The translations under genes were made by a program, and so were the position numbers. Below the pieces are notes generated by a model. That model had not been told where the DNA came from. It saw only the letters and a program-made list of their open reading frames with translations, and did no database searches. A stretch of 64,000 nucleotides of DNA from a virus. The stretch lies in IMG/VR virus record IMGVR_UViG_3300017758_000003, positions 14,044-78,043 of that record. One strand, given 5' to 3'. Shown here in pieces: positions 4,789-59,917 of the stretch (the first letter of the stretch is position 1; each line of letters opens with the position of its first letter).

Positions 4789-5020
4789 CTAACATATCCT
4801 GTGTGAATTCATCAACCATGTTCTCCACTTCTTTCTTACCCCCCTTAGTTCTCATATCTACACTCTTACCTCTTCTCGATGCAAGTTCTACAAGTATAAT
4901 GAGTAAAAAAACCTCGGGTATTATAATCTCCCATTCCATTCCTGTTTTCTTCATCGAAATGGTGATCACCACATAAGAGAAGAAACGGATCTTTTTAATA
5001 AAATTGATTAAACGTTTCAT
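4769..5020 (-). CDS. hypothetical protein
   Basis: 83-aa ORF, first gene of the operon. Confidence 0.6.
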   Translation of the reverse strand: MKRLINFIKKIRFFSYVVITISMKKTGMEWEIIIPEVFLLIILVELASRRGKSVDMRTKGGKKEVENMVDEFTQDMLDVEEKK

Positions 5021-5063
5021 ATACTTAAATTATACAGATAAATACTTATAAAATAAAGTCGTT

Positions 5064-5753
5064 ATGTATAAACATGTTTGTTCTTTTGGTACCATTTGTC
5101 ACACCGCAAGGTTTATGCAACGTATCCACCTAAAAAAGGAGTCCTATCCCTTTGATTGGACATTTTCTGATGAAACTATTATAAGTGACTGTCTTGAGGA
5201 TCGTTTTGAAAAGTTTTTGGACAAATCATACTATACTGATGTTAAAAACGACTTCCATGAGTTTAATTGTGGACATACTCACTATCACGAAGATTTCTTC
5301 TTCCATAAAGATCCACGTAGAGATGATCACTATCAGTACTATAAAAGATGTGTTGATCGTTTTAATACTATGTGTGAATCACATAATAGAAAGTTATTCG
5401 TTGTTTTGTTTTCCCCCGAAATTACAAAACACCCCTTAAGTCTCTCTAAGATAGTTGAGAGTGGTTCAGATAAACAAACTATTATTGAGGACATGAAACG
5501 TAGGGGACGTATCATTAATAACTCCTTATCTAACTATACAACTAACTATAAGTTATGTGTTGTTATGAACTTTGGTGATAATGAAGTTCAGACTTATGAT
5601 CTTCAGGTTGATGGTTGTGTAGACTTTCTTACTCTTAATACCATTTCCCCCTCGCAAGGTGTAACATTTTCAGGAGGTTGGAGTACGAACCAACATCCAG
5701 ACAATTATTATATGTCAGGTTTATTTACAGAACTATACAGACTAACTCTCTAA
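5064..5753 (+). CDS. DUF1796-like putative papain-like cysteine peptidase
   Basis: SFGTICHTA...KKESYPFDW N-terminal signature and a Y.R...RF motif. Confidence 0.75.
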   Translation: MYKHVCSFGTICHTARFMQRIHLKKESYPFDWTFSDETIISDCLEDRFEKFLDKSYYTDVKNDFHEFNCGHTHYHEDFFFHKDPRRDDHYQYYKRCVDRFNTMCESHNRKLFVVLFSPEITKHPLSLSKIVESGSDKQTIIEDMKRRGRIINNSLSNYTTNYKLCVVMNFGDNEVQTYDLQVDGCVDFLTLNTISPSQGVTFSGGWSTNQHPDNYYMSGLFTELYRLTL

Positions 5754-12445: not shown

Positions 12446-12515
12446 CCTATAATCTAAGAAAAATATTCCTAAAAGTCCACCCCCACCAAACTAATAAAAC
12501 CACATATTTATAGAT

Positions 12516-40835: not shown

Positions 40836-43043
40836 ATGAAATTATTAGACGTATTAACCGAAAGTAATAAAGAAGTTGAAGAACAACTACAAGGTATTCT
40901 TAGAGGTGCCGCGAAAAACATATCTAAAGTAAAGGGAGCTATAGATGATGTTGTAAAATTTGCACTTAATTCAGGTCAAGTTATTAAAAATGTAGATGGT
41001 GTTGCATTAGCAACATCTGATGACATTATAAAAGCGATGAAAGCGGGAACTTTAGGTTCTACGGGAGCATCTCAATTAGCATCTGGATTACTCAAATCAA
41101 ACAGGTTACCTAAAGACATACAAAGAACATTAGTTAATGAAATTGCTGCGGGGTCTAAATTTCAGAAAGTCGTTGGTAGTGTTAAATCTGAGAAAGCATT
41201 AAAAACAAGACTCAGTAAAAAAGGTTATACTGCAGAGACTATCGAACTTATGATTGGTAGGGCTAAAGACCAAAAGATTGGTCCTTTTGCAGTAGTAAGT
41301 AAGGTTAAACCTAAAGTAAAGACAACCACAACAAAGAAAGCCACAACGACTACCAAAGCAACCACTACCAAGGCAGCAACAACAGGTACGAGTACAGTAA
41401 GTAAAAAATTAGATGATATTCTTGCCGCCCTAACGGGTACCGCTAAGAAGTCGGGTCAGGGTCAAAGAATATTAAAGTCTGCAAATAGATGGAAAAATTC
41501 TAAACTTGGAAAAGGTTTAGTTGGTGTTGTTACGAGAGTTGGATCTTTTGCACTCATCAAGAATTTACTATGGTTATTACTAATTGCGGGTGTTGGAGGA
41601 TACATTATTTCAAAAATGTGGAAAAACTTTTGGTCTGAGGGAGATCCAATCCCATCTGATGACGATTTGATACCAGTAAACGATTGGCTTGAATGTATTG
41701 TAACACCTTTAGGTGATGACGCAAATGCAGAGATCATCGAACAAAATGGTGTAGCAGTAAAATATAAAATTGATAAGTTTGGTGGTAAAGAAACAGGTGG
41801 TCATGTAATTTTCACACCTGACTATAGAGTGAAGGCGGCGAACGGTATTGAAGGTACTTGGTCTTGTAACCAAACAGGTTTAGAGGAATCAATCAATGAA
41901 CAAGGATTAAGTGGAATTGGTGATTCAAACTCATCTAATTCAAACTCATCTAATTCAGATTCATCTAAAATTGAGATATCAGCGAAAGATATGAGTAGAG
42001 CCATAGACAGTATTGAAGACAACTTAAGTGGTGATTATTTAGAATCAGATTCTACAGACCTTAAAGACGCTTATAATATCGTAAAAGGTTTACAAAACAG
42101 ATCATATAAAGGTAGAGATGCCATACGTGTACTTATTAAGAATTACCCAAAAATTAAGGGTAAAGAATTAGGTACTCACATATTAGAACTTGAAAACTTA
42201 GATTTTGAAGCAACTGAAATAAGAGACGAACTTTTAAGTTTACTTGGATATTCAGTAGAAAAAAGTGGTGGTAACGATGATTCATCTAATAAGAAAGGTG
42301 ATTCTGATGGTGGTGATGGAAACCCTAAAACAGGTTTATCACATATTACAGTTGTATGGGATGGTAAAGATGGTGGAGGAAAAGGAAAAGGTATTAAGTA
42401 TGTACCATGTGATAGTTTCCCATTCAAGATCGGATGTATCAGTGATAAAATTAAAGACGTTCAAAAATGTGCTGGTGATTTAAAGGTGGATGGTTATTAT
42501 GGACCAAAGACTGATGCAAGACTTGCCAAAGTTATAATTGGTTATTCTAAAACAATTACAAAAAAGAGTTATGATAAAATAACAAAAGAATGTAAAGGTA
42601 AAAAGTCTGACGGTGTTACTAAATTGAAGGCAGTTGATCCTGTAAAAAAGAGAGAGAAACTTACTAAGATCACACCATTAGAAATACAACCTATTGTATT
42701 ACCAAAATTAGACATAGAAAAAATGATCAAGGTTCATGGACCTGAGAAGTTAGAGAATTACATTCAAAAAACTATTGACGGTAAACGAATAAAAGATATC
42801 ATTGATAATGAGGTAAAATTCAGAGGTGGAAGGTTCATATTGAAATTGAAAGAAGAACTTACTGAGAAACAGTTAAAGGCAATAAATTACTATTTTGCAT
42901 CAAAAGGTTTCAGTTTAGATAAAAAGAAAGAAACCCTTAAACAAGGAAAGTATGTTTGGAAGGCGGAGACATCAACCGCAAGAAGAATTGCAAGAAAGGA
43001 ATTATCAATTGAGAAACTAAAAGACAAGCAAAATGAAAATTAA
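40836..43043 (+). CDS. putative internal virion protein with TM helix and PG-binding motif
   Basis: LLWLLLIAGVGGYII TM; IKDVQKC..LKVDGYYGPKT. Confidence 0.65.
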   Translation: MKLLDVLTESNKEVEEQLQGILRGAAKNISKVKGAIDDVVKFALNSGQVIKNVDGVALATSDDIIKAMKAGTLGSTGASQLASGLLKSNRLPKDIQRTLVNEIAAGSKFQKVVGSVKSEKALKTRLSKKGYTAETIELMIGRAKDQKIGPFAVVSKVKPKVKTTTTKKATTTTKATTTKAATTGTSTVSKKLDDILAALTGTAKKSGQGQRILKSANRWKNSKLGKGLVGVVTRVGSFALIKNLLWLLLIAGVGGYIISKMWKNFWSEGDPIPSDDDLIPVNDWLECIVTPLGDDANAEIIEQNGVAVKYKIDKFGGKETGGHVIFTPDYRVKAANGIEGTWSCNQTGLEESINEQGLSGIGDSNSSNSNSSNSDSSKIEISAKDMSRAIDSIEDNLSGDYLESDSTDLKDAYNIVKGLQNRSYKGRDAIRVLIKNYPKIKGKELGTHILELENLDFEATEIRDELLSLLGYSVEKSGGNDDSSNKKGDSDGGDGNPKTGLSHITVVWDGKDGGGKGKGIKYVPCDSFPFKIGCISDKIKDVQKCAGDLKVDGYYGPKTDARLAKVIIGYSKTITKKSYDKITKECKGKKSDGVTKLKAVDPVKKREKLTKITPLEIQPIVLPKLDIEKMIKVHGPEKLENYIQKTIDGKRIKDIIDNEVKFRGGRFILKLKEELTEKQLKAINYYFASKGFSLDKKKETLKQGKYVWKAETSTARRIARKELSIEKLKDKQNEN

Positions 43044-43683
43044 TATAGATAACTTAGTTAAACAGACCTTAAATGAGAGGTACGAATTAAATAATAAATT
43101 CAAACTCATTTTAGAGAATGAAGAAACTAACGACGATGGTAAGTTTGATGATGTTGTGGATGCACTTGCCGATTTAGAAGGAATGGGTAAGAGTGATGAT
43201 GAAATCGAAGGTTCTTTAGATGAAGGTATTACTGATTTCTTATCTCAGTATATTTCACCAGGTGGTGACAACGCATCTGATTCCGAAGGTAATTCTTTAT
43301 CAAAGGGGGATCTGAAAAATAAAGTTAGTAGTGGTTTAATGTCACAAATACGTGAGTATATTATTAGAAAACTATTAGGTATGGTTGGATTCACTGGTGA
43401 TTTACGTGATGCTGTAGCAGCTGCACTTGCAGATTTAAATTTGGGTGATGTATTAATTGTGTTCAAAGGACAAGAAAGTTGTAAAAAACATGGAGATAAA
43501 TTAGCCGATGCATTTATGGAAGGATTATTTGTATATGTTTCGGGTGGTGCAGAAAAAAATTCAGCAGCAGCCAACTTCCTAAGACAGGTTGGTGGTGAGT
43601 ATTTGAAAGGTACTAACTTTGGGGAGATGTTGGCAGATTCTATCTGTGGTATGAACCTTAGAAGTAAGTTGAAAGTTAATTAA
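43033..43683 (+). CDS. putative virion protein
   Basis: MKINIDNLVKQTLNE start; followed by a terminator at 43717-43746. Confidence 0.7.
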   Translation: MKINIDNLVKQTLNERYELNNKFKLILENEETNDDGKFDDVVDALADLEGMGKSDDEIEGSLDEGITDFLSQYISPGGDNASDSEGNSLSKGDLKNKVSSGLMSQIREYIIRKLLGMVGFTGDLRDAVAAALADLNLGDVLIVFKGQESCKKHGDKLADAFMEGLFVYVSGGAEKNSAAANFLRQVGGEYLKGTNFGEMLADSICGMNLRSKLKVN

Positions 43684-43767
43684 CATTCACAAAAAAATCT
43701 GTTCAAAAAAATGTTAAATACCCTGTTGATTCGGGGTATTTTTTTTATCTAAAAGATATTTATAGTA

Positions 43768-43875
43768 AGAGATTGGGATTTTGGTCGATCCACAATTGAT
43801 AAACGAGAACAAAACAAAAGGAGGTGTAATCTAATATCTCGGCAAAGGGGTCATATGACCTCTTTGTTCGTTTTA
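43768..43875 (+). ncRNA. candidate late small RNA R1 carrying AAAGGAGGTGT
   Basis: TATTTAT at 43757-43763; 5' hairpin; terminator CAAAGGGGTCA-TA-TGACCTCTTTG whose G-U pair fits the plus strand. Confidence 0.55.
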
Positions 43876-43927
43876 CACTTCAGAGTTTAGCATAAAAAAA
43901 ATGAACCATTTTCACAGTTCATTTTAG

Positions 43928-44310
43928 TGGAGGTGGAGGGTTTCGAACCCTCGTCTTGCTAGTCCCAACTATAGAGGACTACACGTTTAGGATAGTATTT
44001 TCTAATACTCCAAAATTTGATGACCATTTTTTAACTATTGTGATCAACACCCAATAGACCATTCGATTTTGGGTTCAATGGTAATCCACCTTTTTAGGAG
44101 TTTCTGTTTCTAGGTATTTCACTCTCTAACCCATTGTAGTAATAACCTTAGGATACTGCTACTTTAGAATCAACAGATACTAGACCCATTAATTCCATTT
44201 GTGAATAAACGTCTCCGTTTAAAAATATTCTCCATAGATTTAAGTGATAGGAAACATCTCACTACGTGCCCTGTTATAATTGATTACTCCAATCAATTCC
44301 AGTCACCCCC
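43928..44310 (-). ncRNA. ssrA: tmRNA
   Basis: 5' GGGGGTG pairs with 3' CACCTCC-A (G3-U70 Ala identity); T-arm GAGGG-TTCGAAA-CCCTC; 383 nt; tag ORF at 44216-44148. Confidence 0.9.
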
Positions 44311-47964: not shown

Positions 47965-48068
47965 AAAAATAAACCCCAACAAGGATTGCTGGGGTTTTAG
48001 GTCTTCAACGGTTTCAACACCATTGATTAACGAGAAAAACGAGAAGGTTATCGGCAAAGAGAACCTCT
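47965..48068 (-). ncRNA. candidate late small RNA R2, complementary to R1
   Basis: TATTTATA on the minus strand (48073-48080); internal hairpin and terminator whose G-U pairs fit only the minus strand. Confidence 0.55.
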
Positions 48069-48111
48069 GATGTATAAATATATATAAAAATCAAAAAAGT
48101 TACGATATCTC

Positions 48112-57116: not shown

Positions 57117-58940
57117 ATGGCCAAACAAAATCTAACAGTATATCAAAGACTTACAAAGGTGTTCGGGTTTACCGCAGAGAGACCTACTACACCACAATAT
57201 AAGTTCGATAGAGATCAAATTCTTAAAACAGATAGTAGAGAGGATTATGAGAAGGAGATGTTGCAACAACAACAGTCTGCATACATATCTGACAAGTGGA
57301 CAAAACTTGATCAGTCACTTTATAATCAATCAGTATACTATGAACCAAATAGGTTAGCAGCATACTACGATTACGAATCAATGGAGTTTACACCTGAGAT
57401 TTCTGCGGCATTGGATATATACTCTGAAGAGTCAACAACACTTTCAGAAAAAGGTGAAATCTTAACCATATATTCAGAATCTAAAAGAGTAAAAAATATT
57501 TTAGAAGATTTATTTTATAACATATTAGATATTAATACAAATCTACAAATGTGGTGTCGTGGTACTTCAAAGTACGGTGACAACTTCGTTTATTTAAAAA
57601 TAGATCCAAGTAAAGGTGTTATTGGTTGTCAACAACTACCAAACATAGAAATAGAAAGACAAGAGGGGGCAGCATCACAAGTACATAAGTCAGAACAACC
57701 TTCAGGTGTTCAACTACCGAGTAGAGAACTTAGGTTTACATGGAAAAACAAAGACATGGAATTCCAAGCTTGGGAGGTTGCACACTTTAGACTTTTAGGT
57801 GATGATAGAAAATTACCTTATGGTACATCGATGTTAGATAAGGTTAGACGTATATGGAAACAATTACTTCTTGCGGAAGATGCGATGTTAATATATAGAA
57901 CATCAAGAGCACCTGAAAGAAGAGTATTCAAAGTCTTTGTTGGTAATATGGATGATAAAGATATTGAATCATACGTACAAAGAATTGCAAACAAGTTCAA
58001 AAGAGATACTATAGTAGATCCAAAAAATGGTCAGGTTGATATGAGATATAACCAAATGGCTGTTGACCAAGATTATTTTATACCTGTTAGGGATCCTTCA
58101 CAAACATCACCTATTGAAACTCTACCAGGAGCACAAAATTTAGGTGAGATTGCGGATATAGAATATATCCAAAAGAAATTATTAGCGGCACTAAGAATAC
58201 CTAAGGCATTTTTAGGTTTCGAAGAAATAGTGGGTGAAGGTAAAAGTCTCGCATTGATGGACATTCGTTTTGCGAGAACAATCAATAGAATTCAAAAATC
58301 ATTGATTCAAGAACTTAATAAGATTGCATTAGTACACTTATATCTATTAGGTTTGGAAGATGAGTTAGATAATTTTACATTATCATTAACTAACCCATCG
58401 GCACAATCTGATCTCTTAAGAATTGAACAATGGAAAGAAAAAGTAACTCTATATAAAGATGCAACTTCAGATCAATCACAAATAGGTATTCAACCTGTTT
58501 CACATACTTGGGCTAAAAAGAATATCCTTGGTATGAGTGATAATGATGTAGTTCTTGATTTACAACAACAACGACTCGAAAGAGCGATGGGTGCGGAATT
58601 AGGTATTACTCAGAACATTATTAAACGAACGGGCATATTTGATGAGGTAGATAAGAAATATGGTATTCCTGAAGAAGAAAGACAATCGATGGATGATTCA
58701 GGTCAATCCGCACCCGCAGATGGTGGGGGAGGTGATGACTTTTTATCGGGAGGTGGAGATAGTTCGCCACCACCGCCAGACGATGCACCTTTAAGTGAAG
58801 GTCAAAAAACAAAAAAGACTAAAATATTAGGTGAATTGGGAGACGAAAAATTAGAATTTGATGATCTTTTTGATTCCGAGAAGGCACAACGTAATATTTA
58901 TGAGATAGAGAATAAACTCAAAGACATTATAAACGAGTAA
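57117..58940 (+). CDS. portal protein (T4 gp20-like)
   Basis: AEDAMLIYRTSRAPERRVF, DYFIPVR, IETLPGAQNLGEIADIEY. Confidence 0.95.
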   Translation: MAKQNLTVYQRLTKVFGFTAERPTTPQYKFDRDQILKTDSREDYEKEMLQQQQSAYISDKWTKLDQSLYNQSVYYEPNRLAAYYDYESMEFTPEISAALDIYSEESTTLSEKGEILTIYSESKRVKNILEDLFYNILDINTNLQMWCRGTSKYGDNFVYLKIDPSKGVIGCQQLPNIEIERQEGAASQVHKSEQPSGVQLPSRELRFTWKNKDMEFQAWEVAHFRLLGDDRKLPYGTSMLDKVRRIWKQLLLAEDAMLIYRTSRAPERRVFKVFVGNMDDKDIESYVQRIANKFKRDTIVDPKNGQVDMRYNQMAVDQDYFIPVRDPSQTSPIETLPGAQNLGEIADIEYIQKKLLAALRIPKAFLGFEEIVGEGKSLALMDIRFARTINRIQKSLIQELNKIALVHLYLLGLEDELDNFTLSLTNPSAQSDLLRIEQWKEKVTLYKDATSDQSQIGIQPVSHTWAKKNILGMSDNDVVLDLQQQRLERAMGAELGITQNIIKRTGIFDEVDKKYGIPEEERQSMDDSGQSAPADGGGGDDFLSGGGDSSPPPPDDAPLSEGQKTKKTKILGELGDEKLEFDDLFDSEKAQRNIYEIENKLKDIINE

Positions 58941-59719: not shown

Positions 59720-59917
59720 TTACTTCTCTTCTTCGGTCCTAATTTTTTGAATGTAGATTGCCTTTTGTTTTTGAAGTCTTTTTTTAACAGAGGGTTTTGT
59801 GAATTGTTTACCTTCTCTTAATTTGTTAATTTGTTTTGTTCGTCTAACCTTTTTTCTGAGTCTTTTTATTGCCGACTCAATTCCACCTTTATCTTTATTT
59901 ACTTTTATTATTAACAT
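59720..59917 (-). CDS. rpsU: ribosomal protein bS21
   Basis: MLIIKV..IESAIKRLRKK...FTKPSVKKR...KAIYIQ resembles Flavobacteria-type bS21. Confidence 0.9.
   Translation of the reverse strand: MLIIKVNKDKGGIESAIKRLRKKVRRTKQINKLREGKQFTKPSVKKRLQKQKAIYIQKIRTEEEK

Follow-up and report, generated by a model that had tools for sequence, protein, structure and literature searches.

The window considered here, a stretch of 64,000 nucleotides (nt) of viral DNA that corresponds to bases 14044-78043 of the IMG/VR virus record IMGVR_UViG_3300017758_000003, very probably contains a genuine non-coding RNA gene, here called R1. R1 is encoded on the plus strand and is ~110 nt long (~43768..43878), its 5' end being estimated from promoter spacing and its 3' end from its terminator. 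Within it lies an orphan extended Shine-Dalgarno (SD) sequence, AAAGGAGGTGT (AAAGGAGGUGU in the RNA; 43817..43827, plus strand), which follows an A-rich linker and has no second copy in the window. The balance of the evidence leans towards the motif acting through base pairing to the 3' tail of host 16S ribosomal RNA (rRNA). More tentatively, comparison of the sequences allows the proposal that R1 as a whole may be a start-less mimic of the SD of host rpsU, competing with it for ribosomes that lack the protein bS21.

A Shine-Dalgarno sequence without a start codon

Bacteroidia ribosomes ignore SDs, and their anti-SD seems to have essentially a single purpose, the autoregulation of bS21, as it essentially does in F. 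johnsoniae (PMC9976891; PMC13000453). The 3' tail of the host 16S rRNA is hidden under bS21, bS18, and bS6, and rpsU is translated by bS21-less ribosomes, in which the tail is free (PMC9976891; PMC13000453). Among the genes of Flavobacteriales, rpsU is the only one with such a strong SD, which forms 9-13 bp at -14 to -21 kcal/mol (PMC9976891). A sequence-only reading of this DNA had already described both the occlusion of the anti-SD and the autoregulation of rpsU through a rare strong SD, and its account agrees with these papers (PMC9976891; PMC13000453). It had also pointed to an 11-nt complement of the anti-SD in the window, and this complement is real: 11 of 11 bases pair with ...ACACCUCCUUU of the 16S tail ...GGCUGGAACACCUCCUUUCU. 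Since GGCUGGAACACCUCCUUUCU was found without mismatch in all 25 of the Flavobacteriaceae genomes that hold an rRNA end (41 sampled), the 11-mer is a perfect complement of the tail. When the positions on both strands of the 78-kb record are ranked by their pairing with the 13-nt tail, this site stands first among 156,056, at -17.8 kcal/mol, and the runner-up reaches -16.1. As that reading had stated, there is no start codon at SD spacing: no ATG, GTG, or TTG is present 4-13 nt downstream, and the only GTG lies within the motif itself and is directly followed by TAA. A canonical start codon is absent downstream of the motif in every variant of R1; the only conserved triplet of interest is an AUC, 6-9 nt after GGAGGUG (43836-43838 in the window), which occupies the place of the AUG in rpsU.

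The likeness of this element to the host rpsU sites is close. In sampled Flavobacteriaceae, 24 of 30 bS21 loci have a start region of the form (A/G)A(A/G)AGGAGGU(G/U), followed after ~7-9 nt by ATG. With an identical method, pairing with the tail yields -16.8 to -21.3 for the host rpsU sites and +1.4 to -3.4 for SD-less bS21 paralogues, and by this energy R1 falls in the rpsU class. For the rpsU extended SD, 9-13 consecutive base pairs to 16S nt 1532-1544 have been described, with energies of -14 to -21 kcal/mol (PMC9976891); the R1 energies run from -13.4 to -21.9. Like the rpsU element (McNutt et al. 2023, PMC9976891; PMC13000453; PMC13000457), R1 belongs to the class (G)AAAGGAGGUG(U), with 9-13 bp to 16S nt ~1532-1544, has an A-rich leader upstream, lies in the same energy range, and would address the same ribosome population. 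Unlike the rpsU element, R1 has neither an AUG nor a gene after it; it does not lie directly upstream of a bS21 coding sequence, and a terminator follows instead. It also differs in being phage-encoded, 16 kb from the phage's own SD-less bS21 gene, and in being part of a structured RNA with other invariant elements. Among the sampled genomes, four loci (L203, L204, L207, and L210, in genomes G046, G036, G014, and G045, each with two bS21 matches) encode an SD-less bS21 beginning MLKIIV, and a fifth (L209, in G037, which has one copy) has a bS21 gene that likewise lacks an SD and whose product starts with MLIIKV, as the phage protein does; these five may be phage-derived or SD-independent copies.

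R1 relatives were collected from viral and metagenome contigs by means of the neighbouring 216-amino-acid protein (29 protein relatives) and a three-block DNA pattern, and chance hits were removed. This gave 21 distinct aligned sequences, to which a covariance model added a 22nd, located in a 269-kb phage with a bS21 of only 55% identity. Conservation of the motif, the absence of which had been named as grounds for abandoning the idea, is strong: all 21 aligned variants have AAGGAG without change, and the 22nd also keeps the motif, in the form AACGAAAAGGAGGUGU. The linker before AAGGAG and the loop after it vary in both sequence and length. When each variant is paired with the tail ACACCUCCUUUCU, the best pairing always falls on the motif. 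Across the 22 variants the energies range from -13.4 to -21.9 kcal/mol, mostly from -16.5 to -18.2 (mean -17.4); of 500 shuffled tails, not one equals the real tail in pairing with the R1 family. Most variants read AAAAGGAGGUGU, giving 11 pairs, and in L137 (GGAAAGGAGGUGU) all 13 tail bases are paired. The main helices contain 9-13 pairs; L126 and L134 form 8+4 pairs around a bulged A.

Variation within the motif itself follows a pattern. An extra A (GGAG-A-GUG) is present in seven variants, which belong to two separate clades. In these clades the run of A upstream is one shorter or carries an A-to-G change, and a G or GG is then paired to the final bases of the tail (...CUUUCU-3'). The energy is thereby held at -16.8 and -17.6 in six of the seven, with L162 (GGAGAAUG) as the outlier at -13.4. 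Such 5' compensation is what would be expected if selection sees the total pairing with the 16S tail; with only two independent events, it is suggestive rather than conclusive. Pairing of the extra A with a variant 16S tail carrying an extra U was considered and rejected, as no such tail is present in 301 sampled Flavobacteriales genomes; the A is read as a bulge.

R1 as a predicted transcription unit

The start regions of the phage genes are of the Bacteroidia type. In 104 crudely called genes, G makes up 4-13% of positions -15 to -5, and A peaks at -12 to -10 and at -3. GGAGG is found at SD spacing in one of the 104 and occurs 41 times in the window, somewhat fewer than the 55.7 +/- 7.4 expected, so that the earlier statement that the phage genes lack SDs holds generally, and the count of GGAGG that it had called for shows depletion. 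The sequence TATTTAT is present no more than 60 nt upstream of 28 of the 104 genes, compared with 2.4 expected (~12-fold enrichment), and its distance to the ATG has a sharp peak at 4 nt, a sign that transcripts are leaderless or nearly so; many of the phage mRNAs, those for terminase and portal among them, look leaderless. The terminase, portal, and bS21 genes are each preceded by TATTTAT. Examples are found at window positions 12504, 14640, 36409, 37654, 51863, 55270, and 57105. TATTTAT thus behaves as a promoter element of the phage. R1 has its own copy on the plus strand at 43757..43763 (context GATATTTATAG, 43755-43765), and this copy is retained in all variants that could be read with their flanks, even though the flanks diverge. 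Given the TATTTAT spacing seen at genes, R1 should start near 43768.

The predicted folds of all variants are alike. They consist of a hairpin, P1, a long-range helix (AAACGA/UCGUUU), and a terminator hairpin, with the motif in the internal loop between the last two. P1 (43771..43797, plus strand) carries the invariant loop UUUGGUCG (43780-43787), and several of its pairs show compensatory changes, for example UA/CG 10:11 and GC/UA 10:10. The 5' strand of the long-range helix P4 (AAACGAG; 43801..43807, plus strand) pairs with UUCGUUU (43867-43873) in the consensus fold; its five core positions are paired in 20-21 of the 21 sequences, and the changes seen there are one-sided. The terminator hairpin P3, CAAAGGGGUC/GACCUCUUUG (43843-43866), together with its U-rich tail UUCGUUUU, spans 43843..43874 of the plus strand. 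The eight positions of P3 nearest the base are paired in 21 of 21 sequences, L163 carries a double compensatory change, and the G.U pairs are possible only in the plus sense. The conserved block UAUCUCGGCA (43835..43844, plus strand) ends in nine invariant bases, AUCUCGGCA (43836-43844), and its leading U is at least 90% conserved.

How accessible is the motif within this fold? The segment AUAUCUC (43834-43840) has two possible partners, GAGGUGU (the helix P2) and a 5' GAGAU. Both the minimum free energy (MFE) and the consensus folds show GAGGUGU weakly paired to AUAUCUC, and opening the 11 bases of the motif costs 2.5-5.8 kcal/mol, far below the gain from pairing with the tail. The loop closed by CGAGA/TCTCG that the sequence-only reading had placed around the motif is formally possible in the sequence of the window, but just 2 of 21 variants retain its central G-C pair, and the helix is missing from the MFE and consensus folds. 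An attenuator, in which the SD would pair with the 3' arm of the terminator, was also rejected: the pairing is possible, but the genes downstream are convergent, so that read-through has no cis target.

Several features set R1 apart from its surroundings as a gene for RNA. The neighbouring protein is 44-50% identical in most R1 phages; the columns of the R1 alignment average 81% identity. Identity with the relatives ends just past the U-rich tail of R1. The covariance model finds exactly one copy per phage record (E ~1e-20), and the z-score of the fold is -3.85 on the plus strand versus -2.68 on the minus. Promoter and terminator are conserved as a unit, as would be expected of a small RNA that has its own promoter and is intrinsically terminated. 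No open reading frame (ORF) is conserved across R1, because 1-nt insertions or deletions in the hairpin loop shift every frame among the variants, with stops at differing positions, and because an ATG at the 5' end is not conserved. A leaderless mini-ORF over P1 was considered and rejected: by eye, several variants have the ATG and others have AAG, ACG, or nothing in its place, and the covariation of the stem argues for RNA. R1 corresponds to no Rfam 15 family (nothing at gathering score in 43684-43924, and sub-threshold chance hits with E of at least 0.2) and is a new RNA family. The region's DNA has no match in the phage database. No host-encoded R1 was found in a pattern scan of 185,579 species genomes, which returned a 248-kb phage contig and four GC-rich chance hits; a 15-mer scan of viral contigs was uninformative, with more than 80 chance matches.

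The phage, its bS21, and the neighbours of R1

The IMG/VR record is 78 kb long, and its completeness is estimated by CheckV at 25%, so that it represents part of a very large phage, one of marine Flavobacteria. The genes of the window include those for terminase, portal, three transfer RNAs, transfer-messenger RNA (tmRNA), and bS21, the last on the reverse strand and inside the head module. This layout matches that described for large Bacteroidota phages with bS21 (PMC9723584). A 248,233-bp R1 phage contig (G002:C1, with loci L173 and L176), binned in a 1.7-Mb metagenome-assembled genome (MAG) of Flavobacteriaceae, is probably a near-complete genome of an R1 phage.

Phages carry bS21 more often than any other ribosomal protein, and Mizuno et al. 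reportedly described phage-encoded bS21 in large Bacteroidota phages in 2019. The bS21 gene of the window (59720..59917, minus strand) has a TATTTAT promoter and no SD and is the proposed functional partner of R1. Matches to PF01165 (bS21) are present in all five of the R1-bearing relatives that were searched, which with the window makes six of six R1 records, and in all six the region upstream of bS21 is of the TATTTAT type without an SD. Relative to the phage-encoded bS21 systems, R1 would add a second component, an RNA, to the same takeover. A term search of Chen et al. 2022 found no accompanying RNA or tmRNA mentioned together with phage bS21 (PMC9723584).

The motif lies in a gap of 240 nt between two convergent units. 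The upstream gene (43033-43683, plus strand) adjoins this gap, and its transcription unit is closed by an intrinsic terminator followed by a T run (43716..43741, plus strand), identified by a terminator scan; an equivalent hairpin and T run stand before R1 in every relative. On the other side lies the phage tmRNA gene (43925..44310, minus strand; Rfam RF00023, 68.6 bits), which is convergent with R1 and is a conserved neighbour, not a part of R1. It also adjoins R1 in the relatives, and the distant 269-kb phage retains the order of terminator, TATTTAT, R1, and convergent tmRNA. In the distant relatives L121-L126, an apparent minus-strand ORF of ~90 codons (~4830-5100, read by eye) lies between R1 and tmRNA; it is present neither in the window nor in L120. 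Public RNA libraries contain the phage tmRNA, a 370-nt contig from one run being exactly 43933-44302, and other runs contain diverged tmRNA relatives in which internal segments are replaced.

A second element, R2, is a partial look-alike of R1 on the plus strand (48022-48068), with which it has three words in common. The transcript proposed for R2 would come from the minus strand, where a TATTTAT-type motif (48073-48080) is present, and a two-way terminator accompanies it. R2 was found only in the window and in its nearest relative (G001, 98% identical), and the R1 covariance model does not detect it in five records. The duplex of R1 with the minus-strand form of R2 has an energy of -63.4, as against -34 +/- 4.9 for shuffles, and includes GGAGGU paired with ACCUUC. 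The suggestion that R2 targets the host rpsU SD found no support, since its minus strand has no CCUCC and its match to the rpsU-type site is poor and scattered (-14.6, versus -20.6 for the 16S tail). It is possible, judging from the predicted duplex, that R2 releases R1 in this lineage; at most, R2 is a lineage-specific antidote to R1 that stands outside the conserved device.

Other SD-like sequences were noted in these phages. The record's only protein gene with GGAGG at SD spacing is G000:C1:4398-4883 (minus strand), outside the window (window coordinates -9646..-9161); its SD, AAATGGAGGTTGAATATG, pairs with the 16S tail at -13.7 kcal/mol, which makes the gene a candidate for translation by bS21-less ribosomes. 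The record's third and sixth best complements of the anti-SD lie in the Gly-rich C-terminal tail of the portal protein (GGGGDDFLSGGGDSSPPPP; window 58720-58760, plus strand), and the portal tail of other bS21 phages contains tandem AAGGAGGTG words. Orphan SDs in those phages were considered and rejected on this account: the AAGGAGGTG words of G047, G049, and G051 are the Gly-rich coding tail of portal (GGA GGT codons) and not an intergenic RNA, and G050 has no such word.

The decoy proposal and its rivals

In the decoy proposal, R1 would be transcribed from the plus strand by a phage promoter of the TATTTAT type and would end at its own terminator, and its core would serve as a copy of the rpsU extended SD that lacks a start codon. 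Because bS21, bS18, and bS6 hide the 16S tail, R1 would be limited to bS21-less particles: its 9-13 bp could form only where a 30S subunit or a ribosome has a tail left free for want of bS21. With the tail occupied and no start codon offered, R1 would compete with the rpsU mRNA of the host. As a result, ribosomes could no longer be restocked with the host's own bS21, or this protein would be dislodged; the SD-independent phage bS21, made meanwhile, would take the vacant site. In a variant of this scheme R1 might play an active role, pulling the tail out and dislodging host bS21. The transcription of R1, its binding to 30S, and its effect on rpsU or on bS21 exchange are the inferred parts of this scheme. 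The idea of a 30S decoy came from the sequence-only reading, and it stands in part. What remains of it is a conserved RNA with tail complementarity of rpsU strength, 5' compensation, a promoter type in common with phage bS21, portal, and terminase, and a phage bS21 without an SD; what falls away is the conserved CGAGA/TCTCG loop and an R2 directed against rpsU. A broader interpretation, possible but held with more reserve, is that R1 and phage bS21 form a two-part device that rewires the composition of the host ribosome, in which R1 would shut the host's only SD-dependent feedback loop and phage bS21 would replace that of the host.

Decoy RNAs as a kind are already known, 6S and CsrB being examples. 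The logic proposed for R1, in which a mimic of the ligand ties up the binder, is like that of 6S with RNA polymerase, of CsrB and RsmZ with CsrA, and of sponges with small RNAs. The R1 motif and its tail-pairing energy are indistinguishable from those of the host rpsU sites, the imitation of a natural ligand that characterizes a decoy. Unlike 6S and CsrB, R1 would have as its target the 16S 3' tail of a subpopulation of ribosomes, and it offers a single site rather than many; there is no relation in sequence or in Rfam.

Four other explanations of the motif have to be weighed against pairing with the 16S tail. R1 could be a trans-acting small RNA whose purine motif is a seed for some other C/U-rich RNA, such as an mRNA or precursor of host or phage, or a protein site, its likeness to an SD being incidental. 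This is unlikely, although it is the strongest of the four: other parts of R1 (the loop UUUGGUCG, UGAUAAACG, and AUCUCGGCA) are equally invariant, which points to partners beyond the 16S tail, and in the lineage of the window the minus strand of R2 pairs extensively with R1, GGAGGU included. However, R2 is lineage-specific, R1-tmRNA duplexes are no better than those of shuffled R1 in five of six pairs, and a scan of the phage for exact 9-mer complements gave scattered matches, none of them at conserved gene starts. No other invariant host sequence of this sort was found besides the 16S tail, and in variants of the motif with an interrupted 3' part, the bases gained on the 5' side match the extreme 3' end of 16S (CUUUCU-3'). 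Somewhat less probable still is conservation mainly for the fold, with GAGG(U) paired to the invariant (A)UCUC in P2 and R1 acting by its shape, for example as a partner of a phage protein or of the tmRNA system next to it. The MFE and consensus folds do join GAGGUGU to AUAUCUC, a G-to-A change at the fourth position converts a G.U pair of P2 to A-U, and R1 and tmRNA remain neighbours even in the distant phage. But P2 is weak, given an opening cost of 2.5-5.8 kcal/mol, and has no two-sided covariation; of the 11-13 bases that are conserved or compensated it needs just 4-5, and it leaves the invariant AAA and the G/GG extension before GGAG unexplained.

The motif might also function in translation, as an SD from which bS21-less ribosomes start at the near-cognate AUC 6-9 nt further on and make a tiny or non-stop product, possibly linked to tmRNA. 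The AUC is invariant and stands in the place of the rpsU AUG, the tmRNA gene adjoins R1, and in the window the AUC frame, read by eye, has no stop before the U tract. Such translation is nevertheless improbable. AUC is a poor start codon, the hairpin starts 5 nt after it, and no peptide from it can be conserved, since the 1-nt loop insertions and deletions change the frame and early in-frame stops are present in some variants (L163 and L125). Least credible of all is a chance purine run in a spacer, or a fossil rpsU leader with no present function. An 11-mer may well arise by chance, and the second-best site of the record trails by only 1.7 kcal/mol; but across the deep divergence of the 22 variants the motif is either unchanged or compensated while the surrounding linker and loop bases vary, which comes close to refuting this reading, and none of the 500 shuffled tails matches the pairing of the R1 family.

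Some observations weigh against the decoy proposal itself. A 30S subunit bound by R1 would exclude phage bS21 as well as that of the host, so that a net benefit to the phage is not obvious. The R1 phages are all related, and their co-occurrence with bS21 therefore amounts to a single observation from one lineage. R1 was not found in several other fragments of bS21 phages, one of them estimated to be 77% complete, so that it is no obligatory companion of phage bS21. The sole candidate host, the MAG in which the 248,233-bp contig was binned, lacks an SD at its rpsU, in contrast to most of the family, though binning is weak evidence of a host. Within R1, P2, the pairing of the 5' GAGAU with AUCUC, and the pairing of the SD with the 3' arm of the terminator all fit the sequence, none of them with covariation. 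Finally, in RNA sequencing runs (24 considered), the contigs of four cover tmRNA and part of the upstream gene, as far as 43787, leaving out R1 at 43788-43880; small RNAs are usually lost from such assemblies, and this gap counts neither for nor against expression of R1.

For the biology of these phages, the decoy proposal bears on a question that has been raised in the literature: by what means a phage bS21 takes the place of the host's, and how it copes with the feedback loop of the host (PMC9976891; PMC13000453). The same authors have speculated that phages with bS21 make products that assist in its exchange, the rpsU loop being a counter-defence (PMC9976891; PMC13000453). R1 makes this question directly testable, the more so as suitable F. 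johnsoniae strains, reporters, and ribosome preparations are at hand. In the literature searched, no natural RNA is reported to act by occupying the anti-SD; both the target of R1 and its mimicry of rpsU would be new, and R1 would, if the proposal is true, be the first natural regulatory RNA known to work through occupation of the anti-SD. The R1 family can be used for annotating large phages of marine and freshwater Flavobacteria, and, should the proposal hold, mimicry of a ribosome-binding site by an RNA would represent a new way in which a virus takes over translation.

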